A stretch of DNA of 48,079 nucleotides, taken from a virus. Position 1 is the stretch's first letter. Every line of letters starts with the position of its first letter. The notes under the pieces were generated by a model, which was not told the DNA's origin, did no database searches, and saw only the letters and a list, made by a program, of their open reading frames with translations. The stretch lies in the UHGV virus genome UHGV-1371085; one strand, 5' to 3'. Positions 7,289 through 35,905 of this stretch are shown here, piece after piece. The position numbers were made by a program, and so were the translations under genes.

Positions 7289-7504
7289 ATGTACAGACCT
7301 GGCAGCGATTTGGCTCACGTTTACCATCACGTATCTGGCATTAATGTCAATGAAGTTAAGCTCTTGCCGTCCAGCGAGATAGTTGGCATGGACATAGCAA
7401 GATTCAGGATGAACCTTTCTAAAGTTTCAAAGGATGCTGGCATGATGTTCATCACACGTTTTGACAGCCATAAAGAAATACTCACCATCAGAAGGATTTC
7501 ATGA
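7289..7504 (+). CDS. hypothetical protein (71 aa), first gene of the rightward operon
   Basis: Strong SD AAGGAGG. Its stop overlaps the ATG of the next gene. Confidence 0.5.
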   Translation: MYRPGSDLAHVYHHVSGINVNEVKLLPSSEIVGMDIARFRMNLSKVSKDAGMMFITRFDSHKEILTIRRIS

Positions 7505-8991
7505 TGGCAATAAAGACCATTTACGACCTTACAGCAGACATCAAAAAAGATGCCTGGTACGACATCACCAAGCCGCCAGGGCTTGCTGGTGAGATAGCTG
7601 AAGACATCGCCGCTGGTGAAGTGCGAGAACAGCCAAGGTTGCGCGCTGTGGCAGCACTGCATGAGTTGGTCATTGCCAGCAAAGGTAAAATTAAAACCCC
7701 GAGCGGCATGAAAGGAAACTTGCTGACCATCTGTATTGCTGATTCCGCCGGTGGTAAAGACCGTTCTCAAAGTCATTTCAAGATGATCGCCCGCGATATC
7801 GACAAAGGTCAGCACGTTTTTGGCCGCATAGCATCATCAAAAGATATCGGGCGCACACTGATAAACCATGAAGGCGTGGCAACATTTATTATTGATGAAT
7901 GCCATGGTCTTTTTGGCGTGATGTCACAAAAGAATGGCGCCACCTATATGGCAGAGCTTGGCTCTGAAATTCTCTCAATCTATTCAGACCGCCTGAAAAA
8001 ATTCTCTGACCTTGATGCCATTAATGCGAAGGAGTTGCTGGAGAAGGAGTTAAAAAAACTGCGAGCAGAAGTTAAGGATAAAGGCATTGTTGAGACTGAG
8101 TATCGTCGCCGTGAAATGCAACTTGAAAGAGAGATTTTGTGGCCCATCCAGAACGGGATAGAAGACCCTATATTTTCAATGATGTGCTTCTCAACGCCTG
8201 AAAAGCTGGCAAGCATCATCTGCTCTGAAAACATTGGTACCGGCCTTATTGGTCGTGCGATATTCATCAAAGGAAAAGATGGCCGAGCAAGGAAAGCAAA
8301 AAGATTCGGTCACAAGACGCCACCATCTCTTATCGAGAAGATGAAACAGATAGAGAAATCAGCGCCAACCGTGGCGAGATACGAAGATACAATGGTTGAG
8401 CAACTTGCTGAATCTCTTGATGATCGTTTTGAGGAGTTGCGGAATGATGTTTCGCTAGGAGCTGTAATATCACGTTCATTTGAGCAGGTAGAGAAAGTGG
8501 CAACAGCTCTTTCTGCTGGAAACAAAGGGGTCATTACAGAGGCCATGCTGATGTGGGCTTTTTGCTTTGTGTGCGAAAGCCTTACTGACGTAATGAGCAT
8601 GCTTAAGGTGAATGAGAGCCAGGAGGAACTTGGCACCATGGCGCGATGGAACGAGATTAAAAACCGCATTGAAAACGTGCTATCTGGTAGAACACGCGAT
8701 GATTCAATGCCTCAGTCAAGCATTATTCAGCGAGTAGTTAAAACCAAGTCGCTAAAAGGACTGGCAGAAGCTATTGCTCGTACCAATGGAGAGGATTTTA
8801 ATTTCGGCGCAAAAACACTTATCACGCCAGTAATGCAGGCATTAATGGAGTCAAGGGCTATTGATGCTGTCGGTTGCGGTTACTGGATTAACGACGCGAG
8901 CAAGTTTGAGTCGACAAAAATGAGCATCAAATTCTCTCAGATTGTTGAGGGTATCGGCATGAATATGGCGGCACAGAGAGGTTGGAGATGA
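7501..8991 (+). CDS. large unknown protein (496 aa) with degenerate SF2-helicase-like motif I and a DECH box
   Basis: LTICIADSAGGKDRS resembles a degraded Walker A. FIIDECHGLFG is a DExH-type motif II, and the 644-aa helicase in this genome has DECHQ. A central coiled-coil segment is present. No family could be assigned. Confidence 0.65.
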   Translation: MMAIKTIYDLTADIKKDAWYDITKPPGLAGEIAEDIAAGEVREQPRLRAVAALHELVIASKGKIKTPSGMKGNLLTICIADSAGGKDRSQSHFKMIARDIDKGQHVFGRIASSKDIGRTLINHEGVATFIIDECHGLFGVMSQKNGATYMAELGSEILSIYSDRLKKFSDLDAINAKELLEKELKKLRAEVKDKGIVETEYRRREMQLEREILWPIQNGIEDPIFSMMCFSTPEKLASIICSENIGTGLIGRAIFIKGKDGRARKAKRFGHKTPPSLIEKMKQIEKSAPTVARYEDTMVEQLAESLDDRFEELRNDVSLGAVISRSFEQVEKVATALSAGNKGVITEAMLMWAFCFVCESLTDVMSMLKVNESQEELGTMARWNEIKNRIENVLSGRTRDDSMPQSSIIQRVVKTKSLKGLAEAIARTNGEDFNFGAKTLITPVMQALMESRAIDAVGCGYWINDASKFESTKMSIKFSQIVEGIGMNMAAQRGWR

Positions 8992-9180: not shown

Positions 9181-9212
9181 AAAAAACCCTCCATCAGGAG
9201 GGTTTGTTTTTT
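9181..9212. terminator. bidirectional rho-independent terminator
   Basis: AAAAAA ccctcc atca ggaggg TTTGTTTTTT. The primase stop codon lies in the loop. Confidence 0.7.
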
Positions 9213-10084
9213 AGTGCTTCAAATAGTTCTCCTGGTTTATACAGCCTTTTTCTGATGGCGCTGCTGTAGCGGATATCCTGACCATCATCAGTAATCAGTA
9301 TTGGCAGACCTGCATTCTCGGCCGCGCATACCTCATCGAAATTATTATTAATGATGCAACGCAGTTTGGCTCGCTGCTCATCGCTAACATTACGCACAAC
9401 TTCCCACATGTTTTCAGGCGACCAGCAACACCAGACATGAGCGCCGGTAAGCCGGTGTGCTCTCCATGCGTCAAAGTAATTTGCCACAATGTATGTCCAC
9501 TCTGTCTTATCGCCGATGGGTGTCACTGCGCCGCGTGTAAGCCTTCCTCGAGTGTACTCATGGCTGAAACCAGCGCGAAATGACACGCTTTCATCGTCAG
9601 CAATGAATGCCACATTACATAGCGTCATGGTTCCAGCCATATAGAGTGGTATCGCCACCAGTTCACCAGTTTTGCCGGTTATGGTGTCATTTCCCGCCTT
9701 TTTCATGATCGCCTCCACTTCATCTGGAGCAAGGCAGTCTGATGCACCATTGACTTTTGGCAACTGCTTTCTAATCGCCTCAAGTTTTTCGCGTGGATGC
9801 ATATTCAAAAATCCGGCCAGTGCCTCCATTGACTCTGGAAACGTCATTCCTGACAGCTTCATTAGCCAGGTGATGCCGCTCCCGTTTCCGCACTGGTTGC
9901 AGATGGCGCCGCCGTCGCCTTTTGTTTCGAAGTTGTTATCCCACCTAAACCTGTCCTTACCCATGCAATGAGGGCATGGCTGATGCTTCCCAGTAAAAAC
10001 ATTCCTATCAATATTCACTATTGAGAGTAGCGCGGCCTCCCAGTTACCAATCATCCTTTGTCGTATATCTTCCCAATAAAACAT
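9194..10084 (-). CDS. DNA primase (CHC2-type zinc finger plus TOPRIM-like domain)
   Basis: HQPCPHCMGKDRFRW...CNQCGNGSGITW is a CHC2-type zinc-binding motif. The downstream acidic LITDDGQD resembles a TOPRIM DxD motif. It is the only minus-strand gene in the replication block. Confidence 0.6.
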   Translation of the reverse strand: MFYWEDIRQRMIGNWEAALLSIVNIDRNVFTGKHQPCPHCMGKDRFRWDNNFETKGDGGAICNQCGNGSGITWLMKLSGMTFPESMEALAGFLNMHPREKLEAIRKQLPKVNGASDCLAPDEVEAIMKKAGNDTITGKTGELVAIPLYMAGTMTLCNVAFIADDESVSFRAGFSHEYTRGRLTRGAVTPIGDKTEWTYIVANYFDAWRAHRLTGAHVWCCWSPENMWEVVRNVSDEQRAKLRCIINNNFDEVCAAENAGLPILITDDGQDIRYSSAIRKRLYKPGELFEALKNKPS

Positions 10085-10146: not shown

Positions 10147-10668
10147 GTGAATGATTTCGAATTGATGAAGTCAAAAGAGAGGTCAATACCAGTATCCACG
10201 CTGCGTGAGTACTTTTCATACGACGGAATAAATCTCATATGGAAAAGAACAACAACAAACAGGGTTAAACGTGGTGCTATTGCAGGCTCAAAGACTGTAA
10301 GTGGATATCTTCAGGTTGGTTTTTTAGGCTTTGATATAAAGGTTCATAGAATAATATGGGCGTTAGTGCATGGTTATTGGCCTGAGTTAATAATAGACCA
10401 TATCGATGGGAATCCTTTAAACAACAAAATAGAAAACCTTAGAGAGGCAAACTTTAACGAAAATGTTAGAAACATGAGAACCCCAAAACACAACACATCA
10501 GGAGTGAAAGGTGTAGGTTTTTGCAAGCAGACAGGTAGATGGACTTGCTGGATATGGGTTAATAATAAAAAAATATGGCTTGGAAGGCATGCGACAAAAG
10601 AAGCAGCCGCAAGGGCGTATGCAATAGCATCTAAAAAATACCACAAAGATTTTGGTCGATTGAAATAA
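10147..10668 (+). CDS. HNH homing endonuclease with a C-terminal AP2 DNA-binding domain
   Basis: HRIIWALVHGYWPELIIDHIDGNPLNNKIENLREA is the HNH motif. SGVKGVGFCKQTGRWTCWIWVNNKKIWLGRHATKEAAARAYAIASKKYH is an AP2 domain. Codon use is AT-rich, and the gene starts at a GTG with an SD. Confidence 0.85.
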   Translation: MNDFELMKSKERSIPVSTLREYFSYDGINLIWKRTTTNRVKRGAIAGSKTVSGYLQVGFLGFDIKVHRIIWALVHGYWPELIIDHIDGNPLNNKIENLREANFNENVRNMRTPKHNTSGVKGVGFCKQTGRWTCWIWVNNKKIWLGRHATKEAAARAYAIASKKYHKDFGRLK

Positions 10669-28141: not shown

Positions 28142-29023
28142 ATGATGCGCAAGCTAACTACCGAAGAGTTTATTGCCAAAGCTAAAGCGGTTCATGGCGA
28201 TAGGTATGATTACTCAGTAGCCATATATGTAAGTGCTCATACCAAAATATCTTTAATATGCAAATCTCATGGTAAATTTCTCCAGACCCCAAACAGTCAC
28301 CTAAGCGGATGTGGCTGCCCAGCGTGCGCCAAAAAGCAAAGGCCAATATCAAATCTAATGGGTGTTAATGAGTTCGTTATGGAATCCAGAAAAATACATG
28401 GTGATAGATATGATTATTCAGAAGTTAAATATAAGAAATCAATAGATAAAGTAAAGATAAGGTGCATGCTACACGGACATTTTTATCAGTCACCAAACAA
28501 CCACTTGGCCGGTCATGGATGCCCAGAGTGTTCAAGGAACAAAAAAAGAAACTCACTAGAGTTCATAAAAAAGGCGCATGAAGTTCACGGGGCCGACAAA
28601 TACATTTACAGTCTTGTCGACTATAAAAACGCAAACACAAAAGTTTTGATAATTTGCAAAAATCATGGGGTCTTTGAGCAGACACCAATCAAGCATACCC
28701 TTGGTGGAGGATGTCCTGGTTGCGCAAAGTATGGATTCGATGAGTCAAAGGTTGGCTTTGTCTACTTCCTGATTAGCGAGTTTGGGATAAAGGTTGGGAT
28801 ATCAAACACCCCATCCCAGCGGCTACAAAAACTCAAATCAGCAACCCCGTTCGATTTTCATCTTATCGCAAAAGTAAAAACTACCGGCGCCGAGGCCATG
28901 CGCAAGGAAAAATATTATCATCACAAATATGAATCCGCCTCTCTTACTGGATTTGACGGCGCTACCGAGTGGTTGCGATTCTGTCCAGAATTGATGAATG
29001 AGATCATGAATGAGAAGAATTAA
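28142..29023 (+). CDS. GIY-YIG superfamily (T5orf172-type) homing-endonuclease-like protein with three N-terminal zinc-ribbon repeats
   Basis: The unit HGDRYDYS...CK.HG.F.Q.PN.HL.G.GCP.C occurs three times. The C-terminal GFVYFLISEFGIKVGISNTPSQRLQKL...EWL matches the T5orf172/GIY-YIG pattern. The gene is AT-rich and on the opposite strand, inside the tail operon. Confidence 0.65.
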   Translation: MMRKLTTEEFIAKAKAVHGDRYDYSVAIYVSAHTKISLICKSHGKFLQTPNSHLSGCGCPACAKKQRPISNLMGVNEFVMESRKIHGDRYDYSEVKYKKSIDKVKIRCMLHGHFYQSPNNHLAGHGCPECSRNKKRNSLEFIKKAHEVHGADKYIYSLVDYKNANTKVLIICKNHGVFEQTPIKHTLGGGCPGCAKYGFDESKVGFVYFLISEFGIKVGISNTPSQRLQKLKSATPFDFHLIAKVKTTGAEAMRKEKYYHHKYESASLTGFDGATEWLRFCPELMNEIMNEKN

Positions 29024-31092: not shown

Positions 31093-31121
31093 TTGACGTA
31101 GATTGAGGGTGTCGCTATAGT
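31093..31121 (+). promoter_or_regulatory. promoter: -35 TTGACG (TTGACGTAGATTGAGGG), 17-bp spacer, -10 TATAGT
   Basis: Near-identical to the leftward promoter at 6819-6847. A GATGGCGTAGAAAC element follows at 31122-31135. Confidence 0.55.
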
Positions 31122-31155
31122 GATGGCGTAGAAACAACAATAAATGTTAGAGGTG

Positions 31156-31479
31156 ATGAGAATGAAATTGATTACAAACCGTGATGAATTTGTGCGTTAT
31201 CTGAAAATTGCATGCGAATCAGGGGCGCTGACAAATGTTGATGATAAATCGCTCCGCGATATTCGCATTCAGTCTGCTGATGGAAGCAAGTTTAAAATCA
31301 CATGGTACACCAATTCATGCACGCTGATTGCTCCGGGGTTTAGTTTGTGGTTCGACAATGTGCGCATTGAAGAAACTCATCCGTGCTTTCAAGTTGCGCT
31401 GGTGCTTTATCACAATGGCTTCGCAGTGGCGCACATTGGTCATGTCTATGACCATCTTGTTGATGGTTATAAAATTTAA
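31156..31479 (+). CDS. hypothetical protein (about 107 aa)
   Basis: First gene of the island, with SD AGAGGTGA. Confidence 0.4.
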   Translation: MRMKLITNRDEFVRYLKIACESGALTNVDDKSLRDIRIQSADGSKFKITWYTNSCTLIAPGFSLWFDNVRIEETHPCFQVALVLYHNGFAVAHIGHVYDHLVDGYKI

Positions 31480-31871
31480 GAGAGGTGATGAAAATGAATG
31501 AGTTCAAAGGTACGCCGGGGCGCTGGATTAAGCGCGGAGATGGCATTGTTGCTCCTGGCGATATTGAGGTGGCTGTAGTGGTTAACTTTCAGGATGATGA
31601 TGCGATGAATGCAGACGCTAATCTCATCGCCGCTGCGCCTTAGTTGCTGCAGGCGTTGCAAATGATAATGAACGGTGATTTTTATATGCCGAAAGAATCA
31701 GCAGATGCCGCCCGCACAGCCATCTCCAAAGCACTCGGAGAATCCCAATGATTCGCCACGAAATCCGAAAAGAAGACCTGAAAGCATGGCGCAACTTCAA
31801 AATCAAACTTGTATTAATCGTTATCGGATTCGCCATTGCCAGCGCAATCTGTTTATCAAAGTGAGGAAAAG

Positions 31872-32687
31872 ATGACATCTCTCGGAAAAATTTACTCAGA
31901 CAAAGAAACTCGCGGCGGAATCGTGGTCAACAAAGGTTATCAGGTTCCTGTCGACCAGCTTTACCTTGAGCCGGGTTACAACATCCGCGAAGCCGATGAG
32001 CAGCACGTTGAATACTTCGCGCAGTGCTGGGAATCAGGCCAGCCAATCCCTGCGTTAACTGTTATTCCTGATGCTGACGGAAAGCGCATCAAGATTCTTG
32101 ACGGTCAGCATCGTTATCTTGGCGCACTGCGTGCTATTGAGCGCGGCGTGCCAATTGCGCGCATTGAGTGCAAAGACTTCACCGGCGATGAAGCGGACAA
32201 AATCGCCTTCATGGTGTCATCCAGTCAGGGTAAGCAACTCGACCCGCTTGAGCGTGCAAAGGCTTATGTGCGCCTGAAAGGTTTTGGGTGGACGAATGAA
32301 GAAATCGCCAAGAAGGTCGGTCGCTCAGTTTCTGATGTGCAGATGCACCTGTCACTTGGTGATGTGCCTGATGCCATCAAGCAGCGCATCAACGCAGGCC
32401 AAATCAGCTATGCCAATGCCGTTGCAGTGGCGCGTGAGCATGGCGATGATGCCGTTAACGTTATTGATGCTGCCGTTGAGGAAGCGAAAGCGCAGGGCAA
32501 GGATAAGGTGACGGCGAAAACGCTCAAGGCCAAAAAAGTCAAGCCGATTGACCGCCTGATTCAGCTTCTGAAAGAAGCAGATCACATGGTTGTCGCTGAG
32601 GGTCATGTGGCGCAGGAGACAGAAGAGTTTTTGCGCCTTCCTTCCGCTGAGTTGAGTGAAGTGCTGGCGATTCTGGAGAAGCTGTGA
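31872..32687 (+). CDS. ParB-like protein (ParB/Srx N-terminal domain plus HTH)
   Basis: KILDGQHRYLGALRAIERG is a ParBc-type DGxHR arginine motif. NEEIAKKVGRSVSDVQMHLSL is an HTH. The start MTSLGKIYS has SD GTGAGGAAAAG. Confidence 0.65.
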   Translation: MTSLGKIYSDKETRGGIVVNKGYQVPVDQLYLEPGYNIREADEQHVEYFAQCWESGQPIPALTVIPDADGKRIKILDGQHRYLGALRAIERGVPIARIECKDFTGDEADKIAFMVSSSQGKQLDPLERAKAYVRLKGFGWTNEEIAKKVGRSVSDVQMHLSLGDVPDAIKQRINAGQISYANAVAVAREHGDDAVNVIDAAVEEAKAQGKDKVTAKTLKAKKVKPIDRLIQLLKEADHMVVAEGHVAQETEEFLRLPSAELSEVLAILEKL

Positions 32688-32944
32688 TGAAAGGGTTAAT
32701 CAATAGTGGTAATAGCGTGGATTGGTCTTCGATGAGCACTAAAGACATTATTGATCAAATGTCTAAAGCTGTTATTGAGGTTGCTGGAGCCATTGATAAG
32801 GGATTCGCATTCCTTTTAACAGAAAAGGCATACCATGAAGTGCGACGCTGCCGATACAGAAAGTGCAGGGTCAAAAAAGGTTGCGGAAAATTCCGTTATG
32901 TTGCAATAGGTGGGAGTAATATTTCATTTAGGCGGCAAAGATGA
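32684..32944 (+). CDS. hypothetical basic Cys-containing protein (86 aa)
   Basis: ORF overlapping the ParB stop. The C-terminus is RCRYRKCRVKKGCGKFRYV. Confidence 0.35.
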   Translation: MMKGLINSGNSVDWSSMSTKDIIDQMSKAVIEVAGAIDKGFAFLLTEKAYHEVRRCRYRKCRVKKGCGKFRYVAIGGSNISFRRQR

Positions 32945-33114
32945 ACCCCGAGCAATTCATAGAGAAAAACCTGCGCGAAAAACTGCCAGGTATCGACAAC
33001 GCGGCCATAGAGGCCGCAATTACCCACTACAGGCGCAACCAGAGTGAAAAGAAGGGCAAGATTTTCGATGAATGCCTGAGGGTTGCAAAACAACACATGG
33101 TGAAGGTGAAGTGA
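32941..33114 (+). CDS. hypothetical small protein (57 aa)
   Basis: MNPEQFIEKNLREKLPGIDNAAIEAAITHYRRNQ... Its stop overlaps the ATG of the clamp-fragment gene (TGATG). Confidence 0.3.
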   Translation: MNPEQFIEKNLREKLPGIDNAAIEAAITHYRRNQSEKKGKIFDECLRVAKQHMVKVK

Positions 33115-33650
33115 TGAAATTAAAAATCAGCAAGTTGCTCCTTGAAGGTGCTTTGATATTTCAGGCCAAACAGGATGCGCGTTACTACCTTAATGGCATT
33201 TGCTTTATGCCTGATGGTCGCGTTGCCGCTACTGACGGACACCGCGCTATGATTGCCAGCAAGCATGAAAATAAATTGAAAGATAACGTTATCGTTTCTG
33301 TCAGCAAGTCGCCAACTAAGCGTTATGCGTATGCGCTACTGGACACCAAAACAGGTATTGTTACTTACCATGACGAGCATAAAATCATGGTAGGCGCAGG
33401 TATGTGCTCTGAGATTAATGGCCGATTCCCTGACATTGATCGTGTTATCCCAAAGCAGACGGCGGCAACAGAGCAAATCGGCTTCAACGCCAAATATCTG
33501 GCAGATGTTGAGAAGTTGGCAAAGCTGTTTAACCCGAAATATGAAAGCGTGCGCTTTGAACTGAATGGCAATACCAGCGCCGCCGTCGCAAACATCAGTG
33601 CGCCAACTGGCGAGACTGCCAAAGTTATCGTTATGCCGATGAGGCTATAG
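33114..33650 (+). CDS. truncated DNA polymerase III beta sliding-clamp (DnaN) homolog: domain II plus the C-terminal half of domain III (178 aa)
   Basis: [30 protein letters not shown] aligns with E. coli DnaN [46 protein letters not shown] aligns with [31 protein letters not shown] aligns with EIGFNVSYVLDVLNAL. The C-terminus KVIVMPMRL matches the DnaN end AYVVMPMRL. Domain I and the first half of domain III are absent. Confidence 0.7.
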   Translation: [178 protein letters not shown]

Positions 33651-33653
33651 AAA

Positions 33654-33932
33654 ATGCCTGATATGAAAAGATGCCTTTGCTGTGGGGTGGTTAAAGGAAG
33701 TTATGAAGAGCACAATAAGGAATATACCGAACTTGTGGATTTGGTTTTGCAATGTGGTGATGAAAGGCAGTTGCTGAAGCTTTCTGACATCATGAGAAAC
33801 AAAATCACAACTTGCGTGACGACGTCAATTGGCAAGGATAAGCTGGCTTATGAGGAAAAGGATCTTTGGCATGTTCAGGTTATGGTTGATGCTTTAAGTT
33901 TGCTCCGTGATAAGTTACAGGAGCGCCAGTAA
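33654..33932 (+). CDS. hypothetical Cys-containing protein (92 aa)
   Basis: CLCCGVV...QCGDE is a possible zinc-binding motif. Last gene of the island. Confidence 0.4.
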   Translation: MPDMKRCLCCGVVKGSYEEHNKEYTELVDLVLQCGDERQLLKLSDIMRNKITTCVTTSIGKDKLAYEEKDLWHVQVMVDALSLLRDKLQERQ

Positions 33933-33934
33933 AC

Positions 33935-33962
33935 AAAGCCCCTTTCGGGGCTTTTCTTTTAT
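33935..33962. terminator. bidirectional rho-independent terminator
   Basis: aaagcccc tttc ggggcttt followed by TCTTTT. Confidence 0.7.
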
Positions 33963-34792
33963 CAAGGAAGATAAGCATCATCCTCAATCCACGAAACGTA
34001 AGCATTGATATTTTGCGCCGCCGTGTCCAGGGATGTGATGCGTAACAGATAGGTAGTATTAGGCGCCATGATGATCTGCTCACCGAGTTTTGCCTGCGAA
34101 TTACCCTGCCCCTGATTCGATGCGTTCCCTTCACTATACGTCGCAGCCACCGTCAGTTGCCCAATACTTGTAATCGTAGAGCCAGTCAGAAGCTGCGCAG
34201 TTGCAGTATGCGGCGCGATGTCATTTGGGTTATTAATCTCCGCAGCGGTGCCGCCAGTGGCTACGGCTCCACGGTAGATTGACGCCACGACACCCTTACC
34301 TGTGTAGCCAATGATGCGCTGATTGAACACGACCTGTTTTGACCCGGTAATAAAGATGCTGTCAAGGTTAGCCCCGCCAGCGACATCAGTCACGCGACGA
34401 GATGCGGTGAATAGCTTTCCCTGCTTATTGGCAAGCTCCGAGTAGGACTGCGCGACAACCTGGCTTGATGGCACTGATGTATCGGCTCGCCATACCAGGA
34501 CTTTCAGGGAAGCAACGCCAGCAGGGAGCTGGGACTTAATCACTTTCAGTCGCAGCGCCACGCCATAATAATTATTATTGTTAACGTCAATCCAGAAGTC
34601 ACCAGATGCAAACGGCGACACCATTACGGAAACAGATCCGCTTGTTAATGGTGCGTGACCGCCGGAAGAGTTTAATGGCACAATCTGCACCTGCAATGCA
34701 GTCCAGTCTGCTGACATGGTTTCGCTAAGCAAAACCTCTCCGTCAGCCGGAGTTGTGTTTATTTCGTACCTGACAGCCATGATAACCCCCAA
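33962..34792 (-). CDS. structural protein of unknown role (276 aa; capsid accessory or decoration candidate)
   Basis: Lies in the late operon downstream of the MCP gene. It is Gly/Ser/Thr/Ala-rich and beta-rich in appearance. Confidence 0.45.
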   Translation of the reverse strand: MGVIMAVRYEINTTPADGEVLLSETMSADWTALQVQIVPLNSSGGHAPLTSGSVSVMVSPFASGDFWIDVNNNNYYGVALRLKVIKSQLPAGVASLKVLVWRADTSVPSSQVVAQSYSELANKQGKLFTASRRVTDVAGGANLDSIFITGSKQVVFNQRIIGYTGKGVVASIYRGAVATGGTAAEINNPNDIAPHTATAQLLTGSTITSIGQLTVAATYSEGNASNQGQGNSQAKLGEQIIMAPNTTYLLRITSLDTAAQNINAYVSWIEDDAYLP

Positions 34793-34796
34793 TAAA

Positions 34797-34824
34797 AAAC
34801 CCGCTTGTTTGCGGGTTTATTTTA
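34797..34824 (-). terminator. intra-operon terminator or attenuator on the minus strand
   Basis: The minus-strand hairpin aaacccgc aaacaa gcgggttt is followed by TTTATTGGGG. Confidence 0.4.
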
Positions 34825-35016
34825 CTTGGTTTTCTTCGCCTTTGGCTGCGATTCTTGCGGAGTTGCAACTTCCAGAATTTTCTCACTAACCGGGCGAAGT
34901 TTTGACTCAATGTGCGGGCTTGATTCGTCAATGATATCGCCAATAGCAAGCTCACGCAGGCGGCCGTCTTTATCCTTGACAAAGATTCCGCTGGCGATTA
35001 CTTCATATTTAGCCAT
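34822..35016 (-). CDS. hypothetical small protein (64 aa)
   Basis: ORF between the HNH gene and the structural gene. The C-terminus is Lys-rich. Confidence 0.4.
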   Translation of the reverse strand: MAKYEVIASGIFVKDKDGRLRELAIGDIIDESSPHIESKLRPVSEKILEVATPQESQPKAKKTK

Positions 35017-35107
35017 GATAAATACCTCTATTTTGATGTTGATTAATTATAACACATGACATGTATATGTGCTAAGATGGCAAAACCAAATCAGCAAGGA
35101 TTACACT

Positions 35108-35905
35108 ATGACCACAAGAAAAGAACTAGCTATTAAAGCCAGAGAGCAGGGATTAAAGCAGTTTGTCTGCACTGAGTTCCCTTGCGCAAAGTGTGGGTGC
35201 ACTACTTTCTTTACTGCTGGCTGTGGGAAATGCAAGGATTGCTTGTATGAGTTCACCAGAGCTAAGCGCGCAACAAGCGAGGGGCAGGAAAAGGAGCGCA
35301 TTAGCCGGAAAAAATCATATGACAAATATTACTCTATGCCTGAAAACAGGAAAAAGAAATCAGAAAAAGATAAAGCCTACATAAGGCGCGTAAAGTCTGA
35401 CCCTTCAAGGCGTGAAGCGTTCCTGGAAAAGAAAAGGAAGATTTATCGTAAATGGTATTACTCAAAGAATGGTAATGCAAAGGCATTGCAAAACGTAAAA
35501 CAATGGATGATGGATAACCCGCACCATCTACTCCTTAGGAAGGCCCTGGAAAGAATGGATATCAAGATCGGCGCTATTCTTTCTGATTCAAGCATTGATG
35601 AAGTTCTTGGTTACTCAAAAGATGAATTTGTTAACCATATAGAGTCAACAATGGAGGCATGGATGAGCTTTGATGATAGAAGTTCATGGCATATTGACCA
35701 TATTCTTCCTGTGAACTGGTTTGTTAAGAATGGGCTTGTGTATCCAGAGCTAGTTAATTGCTTGCATAACCTTAAAGCTGAACCTGCCGAGTACAATTTC
35801 AAAAAGAATAGCCGATGGCTAAGGGATGATATTACAGAGTGGGAGTGGTGCTACATGCTTCAGTGGATGGTTTATGGCGAGATAAGGTATAAAGAAGGGG
35901 GCTAA
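35108..35905 (+). CDS. HNH endonuclease with an N-terminal Cys-rich zinc-finger region
   Basis: SSWHIDHILPVNWF...LHNLKAEPAEYNFKKN is the HNH motif. FVCTEFPCAKCGCTTFFTAGCGKCKDC is a zinc-finger region. The gene is on the opposite strand inside the head operon, with SD AAGGA. Confidence 0.65.
   Translation: MTTRKELAIKAREQGLKQFVCTEFPCAKCGCTTFFTAGCGKCKDCLYEFTRAKRATSEGQEKERISRKKSYDKYYSMPENRKKKSEKDKAYIRRVKSDPSRREAFLEKKRKIYRKWYYSKNGNAKALQNVKQWMMDNPHHLLLRKALERMDIKIGAILSDSSIDEVLGYSKDEFVNHIESTMEAWMSFDDRSSWHIDHILPVNWFVKNGLVYPELVNCLHNLKAEPAEYNFKKNSRWLRDDITEWEWCYMLQWMVYGEIRYKEGG

Follow-up and report, generated by a model that had tools for sequence, protein, structure and literature searches.

The stretch of DNA analyzed here is the virus genome UHGV-1371085 (48,079 nucleotides, called the window below), which makes up essentially the entire genome of a small siphovirus of Klebsiella type belonging to the Roufvirus/Skatevirus cluster. 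Its plus strand carries an open reading frame (ORF) of 178 amino acids (aa), which the original prediction had described as a phage-encoded fragment of the beta sliding clamp DnaN consisting of domain II and half of domain III. The exact coordinates of this ORF were confirmed (Table 1), and the gene is referred to here as the clamp-like gene. It lies outside the replication module, in an operon which sits between minus-strand head and connector genes and whose other genes encode a ParB-like protein and small ORFs. The plus-strand island has its own promoter-like site and its own terminator, as had been stated for it.

The proposed homology to DnaN was borne out by profile searches. When phmmer was run against the PDB, the beta clamps of E. 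coli and Enterobacter were found with expectation values (E) of 8e-15 to 4e-13 and aa 7-160 were aligned to DnaN 136-295, and a family profile made from 82 diverse relatives reached E 3e-26 against the same database. Amino acids 10-117 were matched to positions 138-253 of TIGR00663 with 45.6 bits, which is below the curated cut-off of 137.65, and PF02767 and PF02768 gave 19.6 and 20.7 bits, both under the cut-off of 27. The identity to enterobacterial-type DnaN is only about 30%. PF00712, the model of domain I, matched neither the clamp-like protein nor any of the 82 family members.

For the last 65 residues two placements were given by HMMER, one on DnaN of about 251-303, which is collinear, and the other on 314-366. 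A profile of family positions 114-178 scored 24-33 bits on DnaN 316-366 and 5-7 bits on 268-303 when it was run on five real DnaNs, and the match to Pfam DNA_pol3_beta_3 covers profile positions 64-121 of 121. The spacing from P106, the proline of the FPD motif, to M174 of the MP motif is 62-77 residues in the family versus 120 in E. coli. The best Foldseek alignments to the E. coli clamps extend over about 258 columns for a query of 178 residues, with a template modelling (TM) score of 0.66-0.68, and thus imply a gap of about 80 residues relative to DnaN; the collinear alternatives have 201 columns, a TM score of 0.44 and a root-mean-square deviation of 13 A. The half-domain profile, Pfam, Foldseek and the spacing therefore agree with the predicted description, and the clamp-like protein is DnaN domain II joined to the C-terminal half of domain III, with neither domain I nor the N-terminal half of domain III. 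Its C-terminus reads VIVMPMRL, compared with YVVMPMRL in E. coli DnaN.

The monomer model predicted by AlphaFold2 with the 82-sequence alignment has a predicted local distance difference test value (pLDDT) of 96.9 and a predicted TM score (pTM) of 0.91. When secondary structure was assigned to this model by DSSP, strand 59-63 was found to pass straight to strand 73-77 through a short loop, SKSPTKR, with no helix between them. The second beta-alpha-beta-beta-beta unit of domain II (II-C) is thus modelled without its inner helix, a conserved proline stands in the loop which replaces it, and this short loop is common to nearly all of the 82 members. In the more distant protein of Xanthomonas phage PhiXhv-5 a longer stretch occupies the loop position and looks helical from its sequence. 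Because the II-C helix is missing, only two of the three expected DNA-facing helices are left. No solved structure of comparable size and composition was found by structure searches.

The relatives were assembled into a family alignment, A1, of 82 members with 26% mean identity, in which D21, R23, Y25, G28, T40, G42, H43, P106, Y128, M174 and P175 are nearly invariant; these correspond in the same order to DnaN D150, R152, Y154, G157, T172, G174, H175, P242, Y323, M362 and P363. The conserved cleft pairs also include L26, N125 and R177, which are aligned to DnaN L155, N320 and R365. In a 2024 review the partner-binding cleft of DnaN is described as subsite I, made of R152, L155, T172, G174, H175, R176, L177, P242, R246, V247, V360 and M362, and subsite II, made of H175, N320, Y323, V344, M362, P363, M364 and R365 (PMC11139829). 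Every position in these two lists has an aligned counterpart in the clamp-like protein except Val344, whose placement is unreliable, and equivalents are present for R152, L155, T172, G174, H175, P242, R246, V247, N320, Y323, V360, M362, P363, M364 and R365. Most of the cleft-equivalent residues are conserved in 77-100% of the family and they make up 11 of its 20 most conserved positions. Mean conservation was 0.73 at 17 cleft positions and 0.38 elsewhere (permutation p < 1e-5); the 17 positions, which were not taken from the review's list, are without R152 and V344. As judged from these alignments, the partner-binding cleft between domains II and III is retained, and on this point the earlier claim that the peptide-binding cleft is kept stands.

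The same review gives the dimer interface of DnaN as Ile78 and Phe106 packed on Ile272 and Leu273, with ion pairs from Lys74, Arg96, Arg103 and Arg105 to Glu298-304 (PMC11139829). Domain I and the N-terminal half of domain III (DnaN 272-304), both of them absent, contain all of these residues, so that the ring-closing interface is, by alignment, wholly missing from the clamp-like protein. The original prediction had credited the fragment with part of the head-to-tail dimer interface, and this part of it has to be given up; the basis for co-assembly with the host ring, or for poisoning of it, is removed with it. A poison subunit, which would insert into or cap the host beta-clamp subunits, block ring closure and stop host replication, is on this account very unlikely. 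Topology would allow capping in principle, the free edge strand of domain II being pseudo-equivalent to the domain I edge which pairs with domain III'. Against this stand the absence of every native interface residue, the lack of conservation of the residues aligned to Ile272/Leu273 in the alternative collinear alignment, and the presumable need of a polymerase-less phage for the host clamp and polymerase III (Pol III).

The clamp-like protein is basic, with an isoelectric point (pI) of 9.4 and a net charge of +7. The median pI of the family is 8.5 and 71% of its members are above 7.5, compared with 5.25 for E. coli DnaN and 5.8 for its equivalent fragment. This acquired positive charge suggests attachment to DNA or to an acidic partner. 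The residues D21 and R23 are conserved counterparts of positions within the 148-152 loop, through which DnaN contacts DNA.

The family is large and widely spread. The protein matches phrog_3007 with E 9.4e-58 (aa 1-178 against profile positions 1-186 of 190), and 277 phage records were found by tblastn, of which 270 have a full-length copy; their hosts include Klebsiella, Salmonella, Escherichia, Vibrio, Burkholderia, Pantoea, Proteus, Xanthomonas, Pseudomonas and Shewanella. When 1.84 billion representatives of clusters at 50% identity were searched exhaustively with phmmer, 170 matches below 1e-10 were returned. Most of the best 150 representatives have 170-215 aa; scattered among them are four DnaNs of full length, about a dozen sequences which are truncated, and a single false positive. 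The latter is P0226, a 1004-aa WD40-repeat caspase-like protein (E 2e-12, 11 matched stretches) whose repeat CFSPDGRYALSGS resembles a stretch of the query; it was rejected as a family member, the match being repeat-driven, and because of it raw counts of family size need care. Two to three residues follow the MP motif in 74 of the 82 members of A1, and clusters below 50% identity have the length and both termini in common.

Compared with the copy in Klebsiella phage RSU-F4K5, the clamp-like gene has a ratio of nonsynonymous to synonymous substitution rates (dN/dS) of 0.077, and it is under purifying selection. This upholds the earlier argument against a decaying pseudogene. The statement that no upstream domain I coding is visible was upheld too. 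When full-length DnaN was searched by tblastn against the whole window, the clamp-like ORF was the only meaningful match (next best E 0.23), which excludes a frameshifted or split full-length gene and a hidden domain I. A non-functional remnant of a captured dnaN, or an artefact of annotation or assembly, is the reading to which the Pfam and TIGRFAM scores below their curated cut-offs could be attached; it is refuted by the low dN/dS, by the full-length copies in 270 phage records, by the length and termini kept across distant clusters, by the very confident model and by the lack of any other dnaN-like frame in the window. A recent host-gene capture, which had been offered as a further possibility, does not agree with the roughly 30% identity to enterobacterial DnaN or with the occurrence of the short architecture in many clusters below 50% identity. 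No nucleotide match to the clamp-like gene was found in the E. coli genome collection.

The clamp-like gene joins a known, functionally uncharacterised family of short phage polIII-beta homologues, whose presence in phage genomes has been on record from the 2000s onwards. Twelve phage polIII-beta homologues, short ones included, were reported by Kazlauskas and Venclovas in 2011, and clamp homologues likely to have come from horizontal transfer were treated there as dispensable for replication (PMC3201878). In Bcep781 gp15 a tblastn match extends over aa 3-177 of the query and the GenBank note reads "DNA Pol III b subunit fragment"; for near-identical Klebsiella phage genes GenBank already gives the name "DNA polymerase III beta subunit". 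The remark that no described truncated clamp of this kind was known is thus overturned by the 2011 report, by gp15 and by the GenBank labels. No functional work on short phage clamps was found in the searched literature, and the gene goes unmentioned in a paper on the temporal transcriptome of a Kagunavirus. Nor did that literature yield the 1.5-domain anatomy, the loss of the helix, the conservation centred on the cleft, the reversed charge or the natural presence/absence polymorphism.

PHROG 3007 and many RefSeq records (NC_071155.1 and NC_042037.1 among them) carry the label "RusA-like Holliday junction resolvase". No RusA match was obtained in Pfam or NCBIfam, and the significant matches of the structure searches are all of the clamp fold. 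The RusA-like identity was rejected, since searches by sequence, by profile and by structure gave it no support; the label, which spread from PHROG 3007 into RefSeq, looks like a mis-annotation that has been propagated, and it should be corrected in both PHROGs and RefSeq.

The features of the locus are collected in Table 1.

Table 1. Features of the clamp-like gene and its surroundings in the window (positions are those of the window)
Feature	Position	Strand	Description
Clamp-like coding sequence	33114..33650	+	178 aa, stop codon included
Clamp-like aa 1-113	33114..33452	+	Equivalent to DnaN domain II (about 126-250) and the II-III connector; HMMER alignments to DnaN 136-253
Clamp-like aa 114-178	33453..33647	+	Equivalent to C-terminal half of DnaN domain III (about 316-366); IGFNxxY, C-terminal VMPMRL
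Shine-Dalgarno-like AAGGTG	33103..33108	+	5 nucleotides upstream of the clamp-like ATG; read from sequence
57-aa ORF (phrog_4439)	32941..33114	+	Upstream of the clamp-like gene; its TGA overlaps the clamp-like ATG (ATGA)
92-aa Cys-rich ORF	33654..33932	+	Same operon, downstream of the clamp-like gene; starts 4 nucleotides past the clamp-like stop
Promoter-like site TTGACG-17-TATAGT	31093..31121	+	Consensus scan, 10/12 matches; pattern match only
Operon with the clamp-like gene	31144-33932	+	Promoter-like site at its head
Intrinsic-terminator-like hairpin	33935..33954	+	End of operon; 8 base pairs, 5 GC, T-rich tail
Variable cassette	33018..33926	+	3' end of the 57-aa gene, clamp-like gene and 92-aa ORF; BUCT610 has about 300 base pairs instead

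An alternative ATG start at 33072, which would give 192 aa, is called in many database entries and has no Shine-Dalgarno-like element. Column 1 of A1 is Met in 48% of the 82 members, and homologues tend to start at the position of the 178-aa form. The overlap of the 57-aa ORF with the clamp-like gene suggests translational coupling of the two. The 57-aa ORF is retained with 74% amino-acid identity in Klebsiella phage BUCT610 though the clamp-like gene is absent there, and since it persists in this way it was ruled out as a dedicated partner. Relatives of the 92-aa ORF were found in just 16 phage records, some of them annotated "zinc finger protein", and it has no PHROG match. These 16 records do not overlap with those in which a near nucleotide copy of the clamp-like gene was found, and RSU-F4K5, although it carries the clamp-like gene, has no 92-aa ORF. 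This separate distribution rules it out as a conserved partner; it is an independent small accessory gene.

The flanks of the locus are 91-93% identical in BUCT610, in which homology ends at 33017 and resumes at 33927 by both blastn and tblastn, and no clamp-like match was found there when the window was searched by these programs. The gene is thus dispensable in this lineage, and it is an optional accessory function and no core part of the replisome. The plus-strand island (31144-35021 compared) is a mosaic hot spot relative to both RSU-F4K5 and BUCT610. In RSU-F4K5 a DNA methyltransferase gene of 930 base pairs takes the place of window 32694-32940, where an 86-aa ORF lies, and the window has 33651-34781 in addition, which holds the 92-aa ORF, the terminator and a 276-aa minus-strand ORF (phrog_5335).

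The window encodes primase-like proteins, a helicase, an exonuclease, a RecA/Sak4-like protein and SSB, and no DNA polymerase gene was found in its roughly 48 kilobases or in the relative RSU-F4K5; the host Pol III presumably carries out replication. At 7501-8991 (plus strand) and 9194-10084 (minus strand) there are two genes annotated as primases, which face each other. The 496-aa product of the first matches phrog_33132 end to end as well as C-terminal parts of long primases, and the 296-aa product of the second matches the N-terminal part of phrog_510; RSU-F4K5 has a single annotated primase, of 772 aa, and a different arrangement of the replication module. Among the core genes lie three ORFs of HNH or endonuclease VII-like type, at 10147-10668, 28142-29023 and 35069-35905, all on the plus strand; one of them adjoins the helicase gene and another, on the opposite strand, the major capsid gene. 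They are likely to be homing endonucleases and to add to the mosaicism. No tRNA genes were found in the window, and the relative KP591P1 is annotated with tRNA-Ser and tRNA-Met.

The genomic settings of other family members are diverse. In Kagunavirus, Bcep781 and Proteus phage Isfahan the clamp-like gene stands alone on the opposite strand within structural modules, and in a Vibrio phage it is near tail-associated genes. It lies between the helicase and DNA polymerase genes in PhiXhv-5, follows helicase and VRR-NUC genes in that order in Pantoea phage LIET2, and is near an SSB gene on a metagenomic contig. In prophage-like regions on Klebsiella and Salmonella plasmids it is found in the early-left operon, between the repressor and xis/int. 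These plasmid copies (Klebsiella NZ_CP046383.1, 109135-109698; Salmonella NZ_CP045061.1, 62344-62910) have 28-30% identity and lie apart from helicase/toprim replication genes, and the Klebsiella copy follows a regulator of the Rha family.

No neighbour is conserved across the ten contexts which were compared. Kagunavirus and PhiXhv-5 each have a DNA polymerase as well as a family member, and the idea that the gene is needed because the phage lacks a polymerase was for this reason rejected as a general rule. The Bcep1-like phages form a PolA group (PMC3201878). When every window ORF of 50 aa or more was searched with QLxLF and QLxLxL-type regular expressions, all matches were internal or spurious; in the PhiXhv-5 helicase and polymerase and the Kagunavirus PolA a single internal clamp-binding motif match was seen and none at a terminus. 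With no convincing motif in the window ORFs or in the polymerases of these two phages, a phage-encoded ligand was set aside. The lack of a conserved neighbour, together with the lack of a convincing phage clamp-binding motif, points to a target which is conserved in the hosts.

This setting is also where a decoy against clamp-directed host weapons or sensors has to be considered, in which the spare cleft would soak up motif-bearing toxins or defence effectors. The Caulobacter toxin SocB is said to target DnaN. The patchy, cassette-like distribution in hypervariable islands, the lone opposite-strand position within the structural modules of several phages, the early-left operon of temperate elements between repressor and xis/int, and the conserved cleft all fit such a role, features of this kind being typical of counter-defence or host-modulation genes. 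The idea is, however, purely inferential and leaves the basic charge unexplained, and we know of no defence system in these hosts which acts through the clamp cleft. No PADLOC matches were obtained for six proteins of the island, which rejects the clamp-like gene as a member of a defence system; it also counts against the decoy, although that library is one of defence proteins and has no anti-defence proteins. We regard the decoy as unlikely.

The PhiXhv-5 and LIET2 settings bear on another explanation, that of a true sliding clamp built to a new plan. Four 1.5-domain protomers (4 x 1.5 = 6 domains) would form a closed ring with two-fold axes. In it the half-domains would join as a symmetric pseudo-domain III, the edges of domain II left free would pair with one another, and a polymerase of the phage or of the host would gain its processivity from the ring. 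The clamp fold has an internal pseudo-two-fold symmetry, which would make the unpaired half-domain a natural surface for homodimerisation, and the conserved cleft as well as the adjoining helicase and DNA polymerase genes in PhiXhv-5 and helicase and VRR-NUC genes in LIET2 are in keeping with such a ring. But nearly all members are without one of the three DNA-facing helices that would be expected, the overall positive charge is unlike that of ring clamps, no clamp loader was noticed in the annotation which was read for these phages, and the gene is dispensable in this lineage and usually far from replication genes. The tetrameric ring is therefore distinctly unlikely.

The reading we prefer, with a probability of roughly 40%, is that the protein is a free-standing, non-ring cleft module which binds the clamp-binding motifs of host replication and repair proteins. 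It would be a "mini beta clamp" of about 20 kDa, made of the two pieces which form the partner-binding cleft. It would most likely form no DnaN-type ring around DNA, encircling of that type being unlikely given that domain I and the N-terminal half of domain III are absent and the inner helix is lost. The cleft would act off the ring, on the clamp-binding motifs of host proteins, and the protein could be attached to DNA or to an acidic partner with no need of a clamp loader. The net effect would be that clients of the host clamp are diverted or competed for, to the benefit of the phage. Host polymerases or repair factors might be brought to phage DNA in this way, or the host clamp might be deprived of its clients by competition and sequestration. 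The affinity of the delta subunit for the monomeric I272A/L273A clamp exceeds that for the dimer about 50-fold (PMC11139829), which indicates that a cleft outside a ring can be an effective competitor. Sequestration of clamp-binding proteins, one of the roles first proposed, is compatible with the evidence. We infer peptide binding, the non-ring state and the association with DNA, as well as the identity of the ligand and its fate, from the features described above.

Several points weigh against this preferred reading. A phage without a polymerase would be hurt by wholesale sequestration of Pol III or of the clamp loader, and its dependence on host Pol III makes such sequestration unlikely here. 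Removal of half of domain III should expose a surface which is buried in DnaN and may drive homo-oligomerisation. In some lineages (PhiXhv-5, LIET2) the gene stands in a replication module, which hints at a more direct role in the replisome there. The equivalents of R176, L177 and M364 are variable (0.27-0.46). The cleft residues are also the most conserved ones in DnaN generally, and some of them are structural at the junction of domains II and III, so that conservation of the cleft is no proof of ligand binding. A broader joint claim is that the family represents a new class of factors by which phages manipulate the host, in which a minimal, loader-independent 1.5-domain cleft module, either a DNA-bound monomer or an unprecedented symmetric tetrameric ring, rewires or decoys the entire clamp-client network of the host in the course of infection, with the clamp-binding motifs of host polymerases, of the clamp loader, of repair proteins or of clamp-directed toxins as its targets; taken as a whole, this is possible but doubtful.

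Bacterial polymerases, mismatch repair, Hda and the clamp loader are all organised through the cleft of the beta clamp, which is also a target of antibiotics. A phage protein that is widespread and keeps only the cleft is a natural experiment on how the cleft functions off the ring. If clamp-binding motifs are bound, the protein would represent a new route of host takeover or counter-defence and would also offer a compact reagent to probe or block clamp-client interactions. Near-isogenic natural phages, with the gene present in this phage and RSU-F4K5 and not in BUCT610, make the question directly testable. The family will be unsurprising to specialists, with literature since 2011, yet it is widespread, strongly selected and unexplained.

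Compared with DnaN of E. coli (PDB 2POL, 1MMI), the clamp-like protein has half the size and is without domain I, the N-terminal half of domain III and the interface residues. It has also lost the second domain II helix, it is basic where DnaN is acidic, and it is phage-borne and dispensable. DnaN is made of three clamp-fold domains in about 366 aa, PF00712 included, whereas the clamp-like protein has 178 aa without PF00712. The E. coli beta* protein was reportedly described by Skaliter, Paz-Elizur and Livneh in 1996 as a product of dnaN inducible by ultraviolet light and started internally; it is said to have complete domains II and III, about 26 kDa, to act as a polymerase clamp and to have been proposed as a trimer. 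Beta* and the phage protein are both clamp-derived, lack domain I and keep the cleft, but the clamp-like protein is without half of domain III and is the product of a separate, diverged phage gene.

PHROG 3007 and Bcep781 gp15 belong to the same family by direct evidence, namely the end-to-end profile match and the tblastn match. The short homologues were described in 2011 as having the second and third domains (PMC3201878), whereas here only half of the third domain is left and the second has lost one helix. The monomeric beta I272A/L273A in complex with the delta "wrench" (PDB 1JQL) provides a likeness, since that clamp cannot close a ring and binds its client through the cleft; it is, however, an engineered full-length protein, and the clamp-like protein lacks the loop which delta contacts in the N-terminal half of domain III. 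The herpesvirus proteins UL42, UL44, BMRF1 and PF-8 have two full domains, have no detectable sequence similarity to it and belong to a eukaryotic-virus context. The likeness to the UL42 type is a functional analogy only, in the monomeric, loader-free association with DNA which is proposed here for the clamp-like protein.

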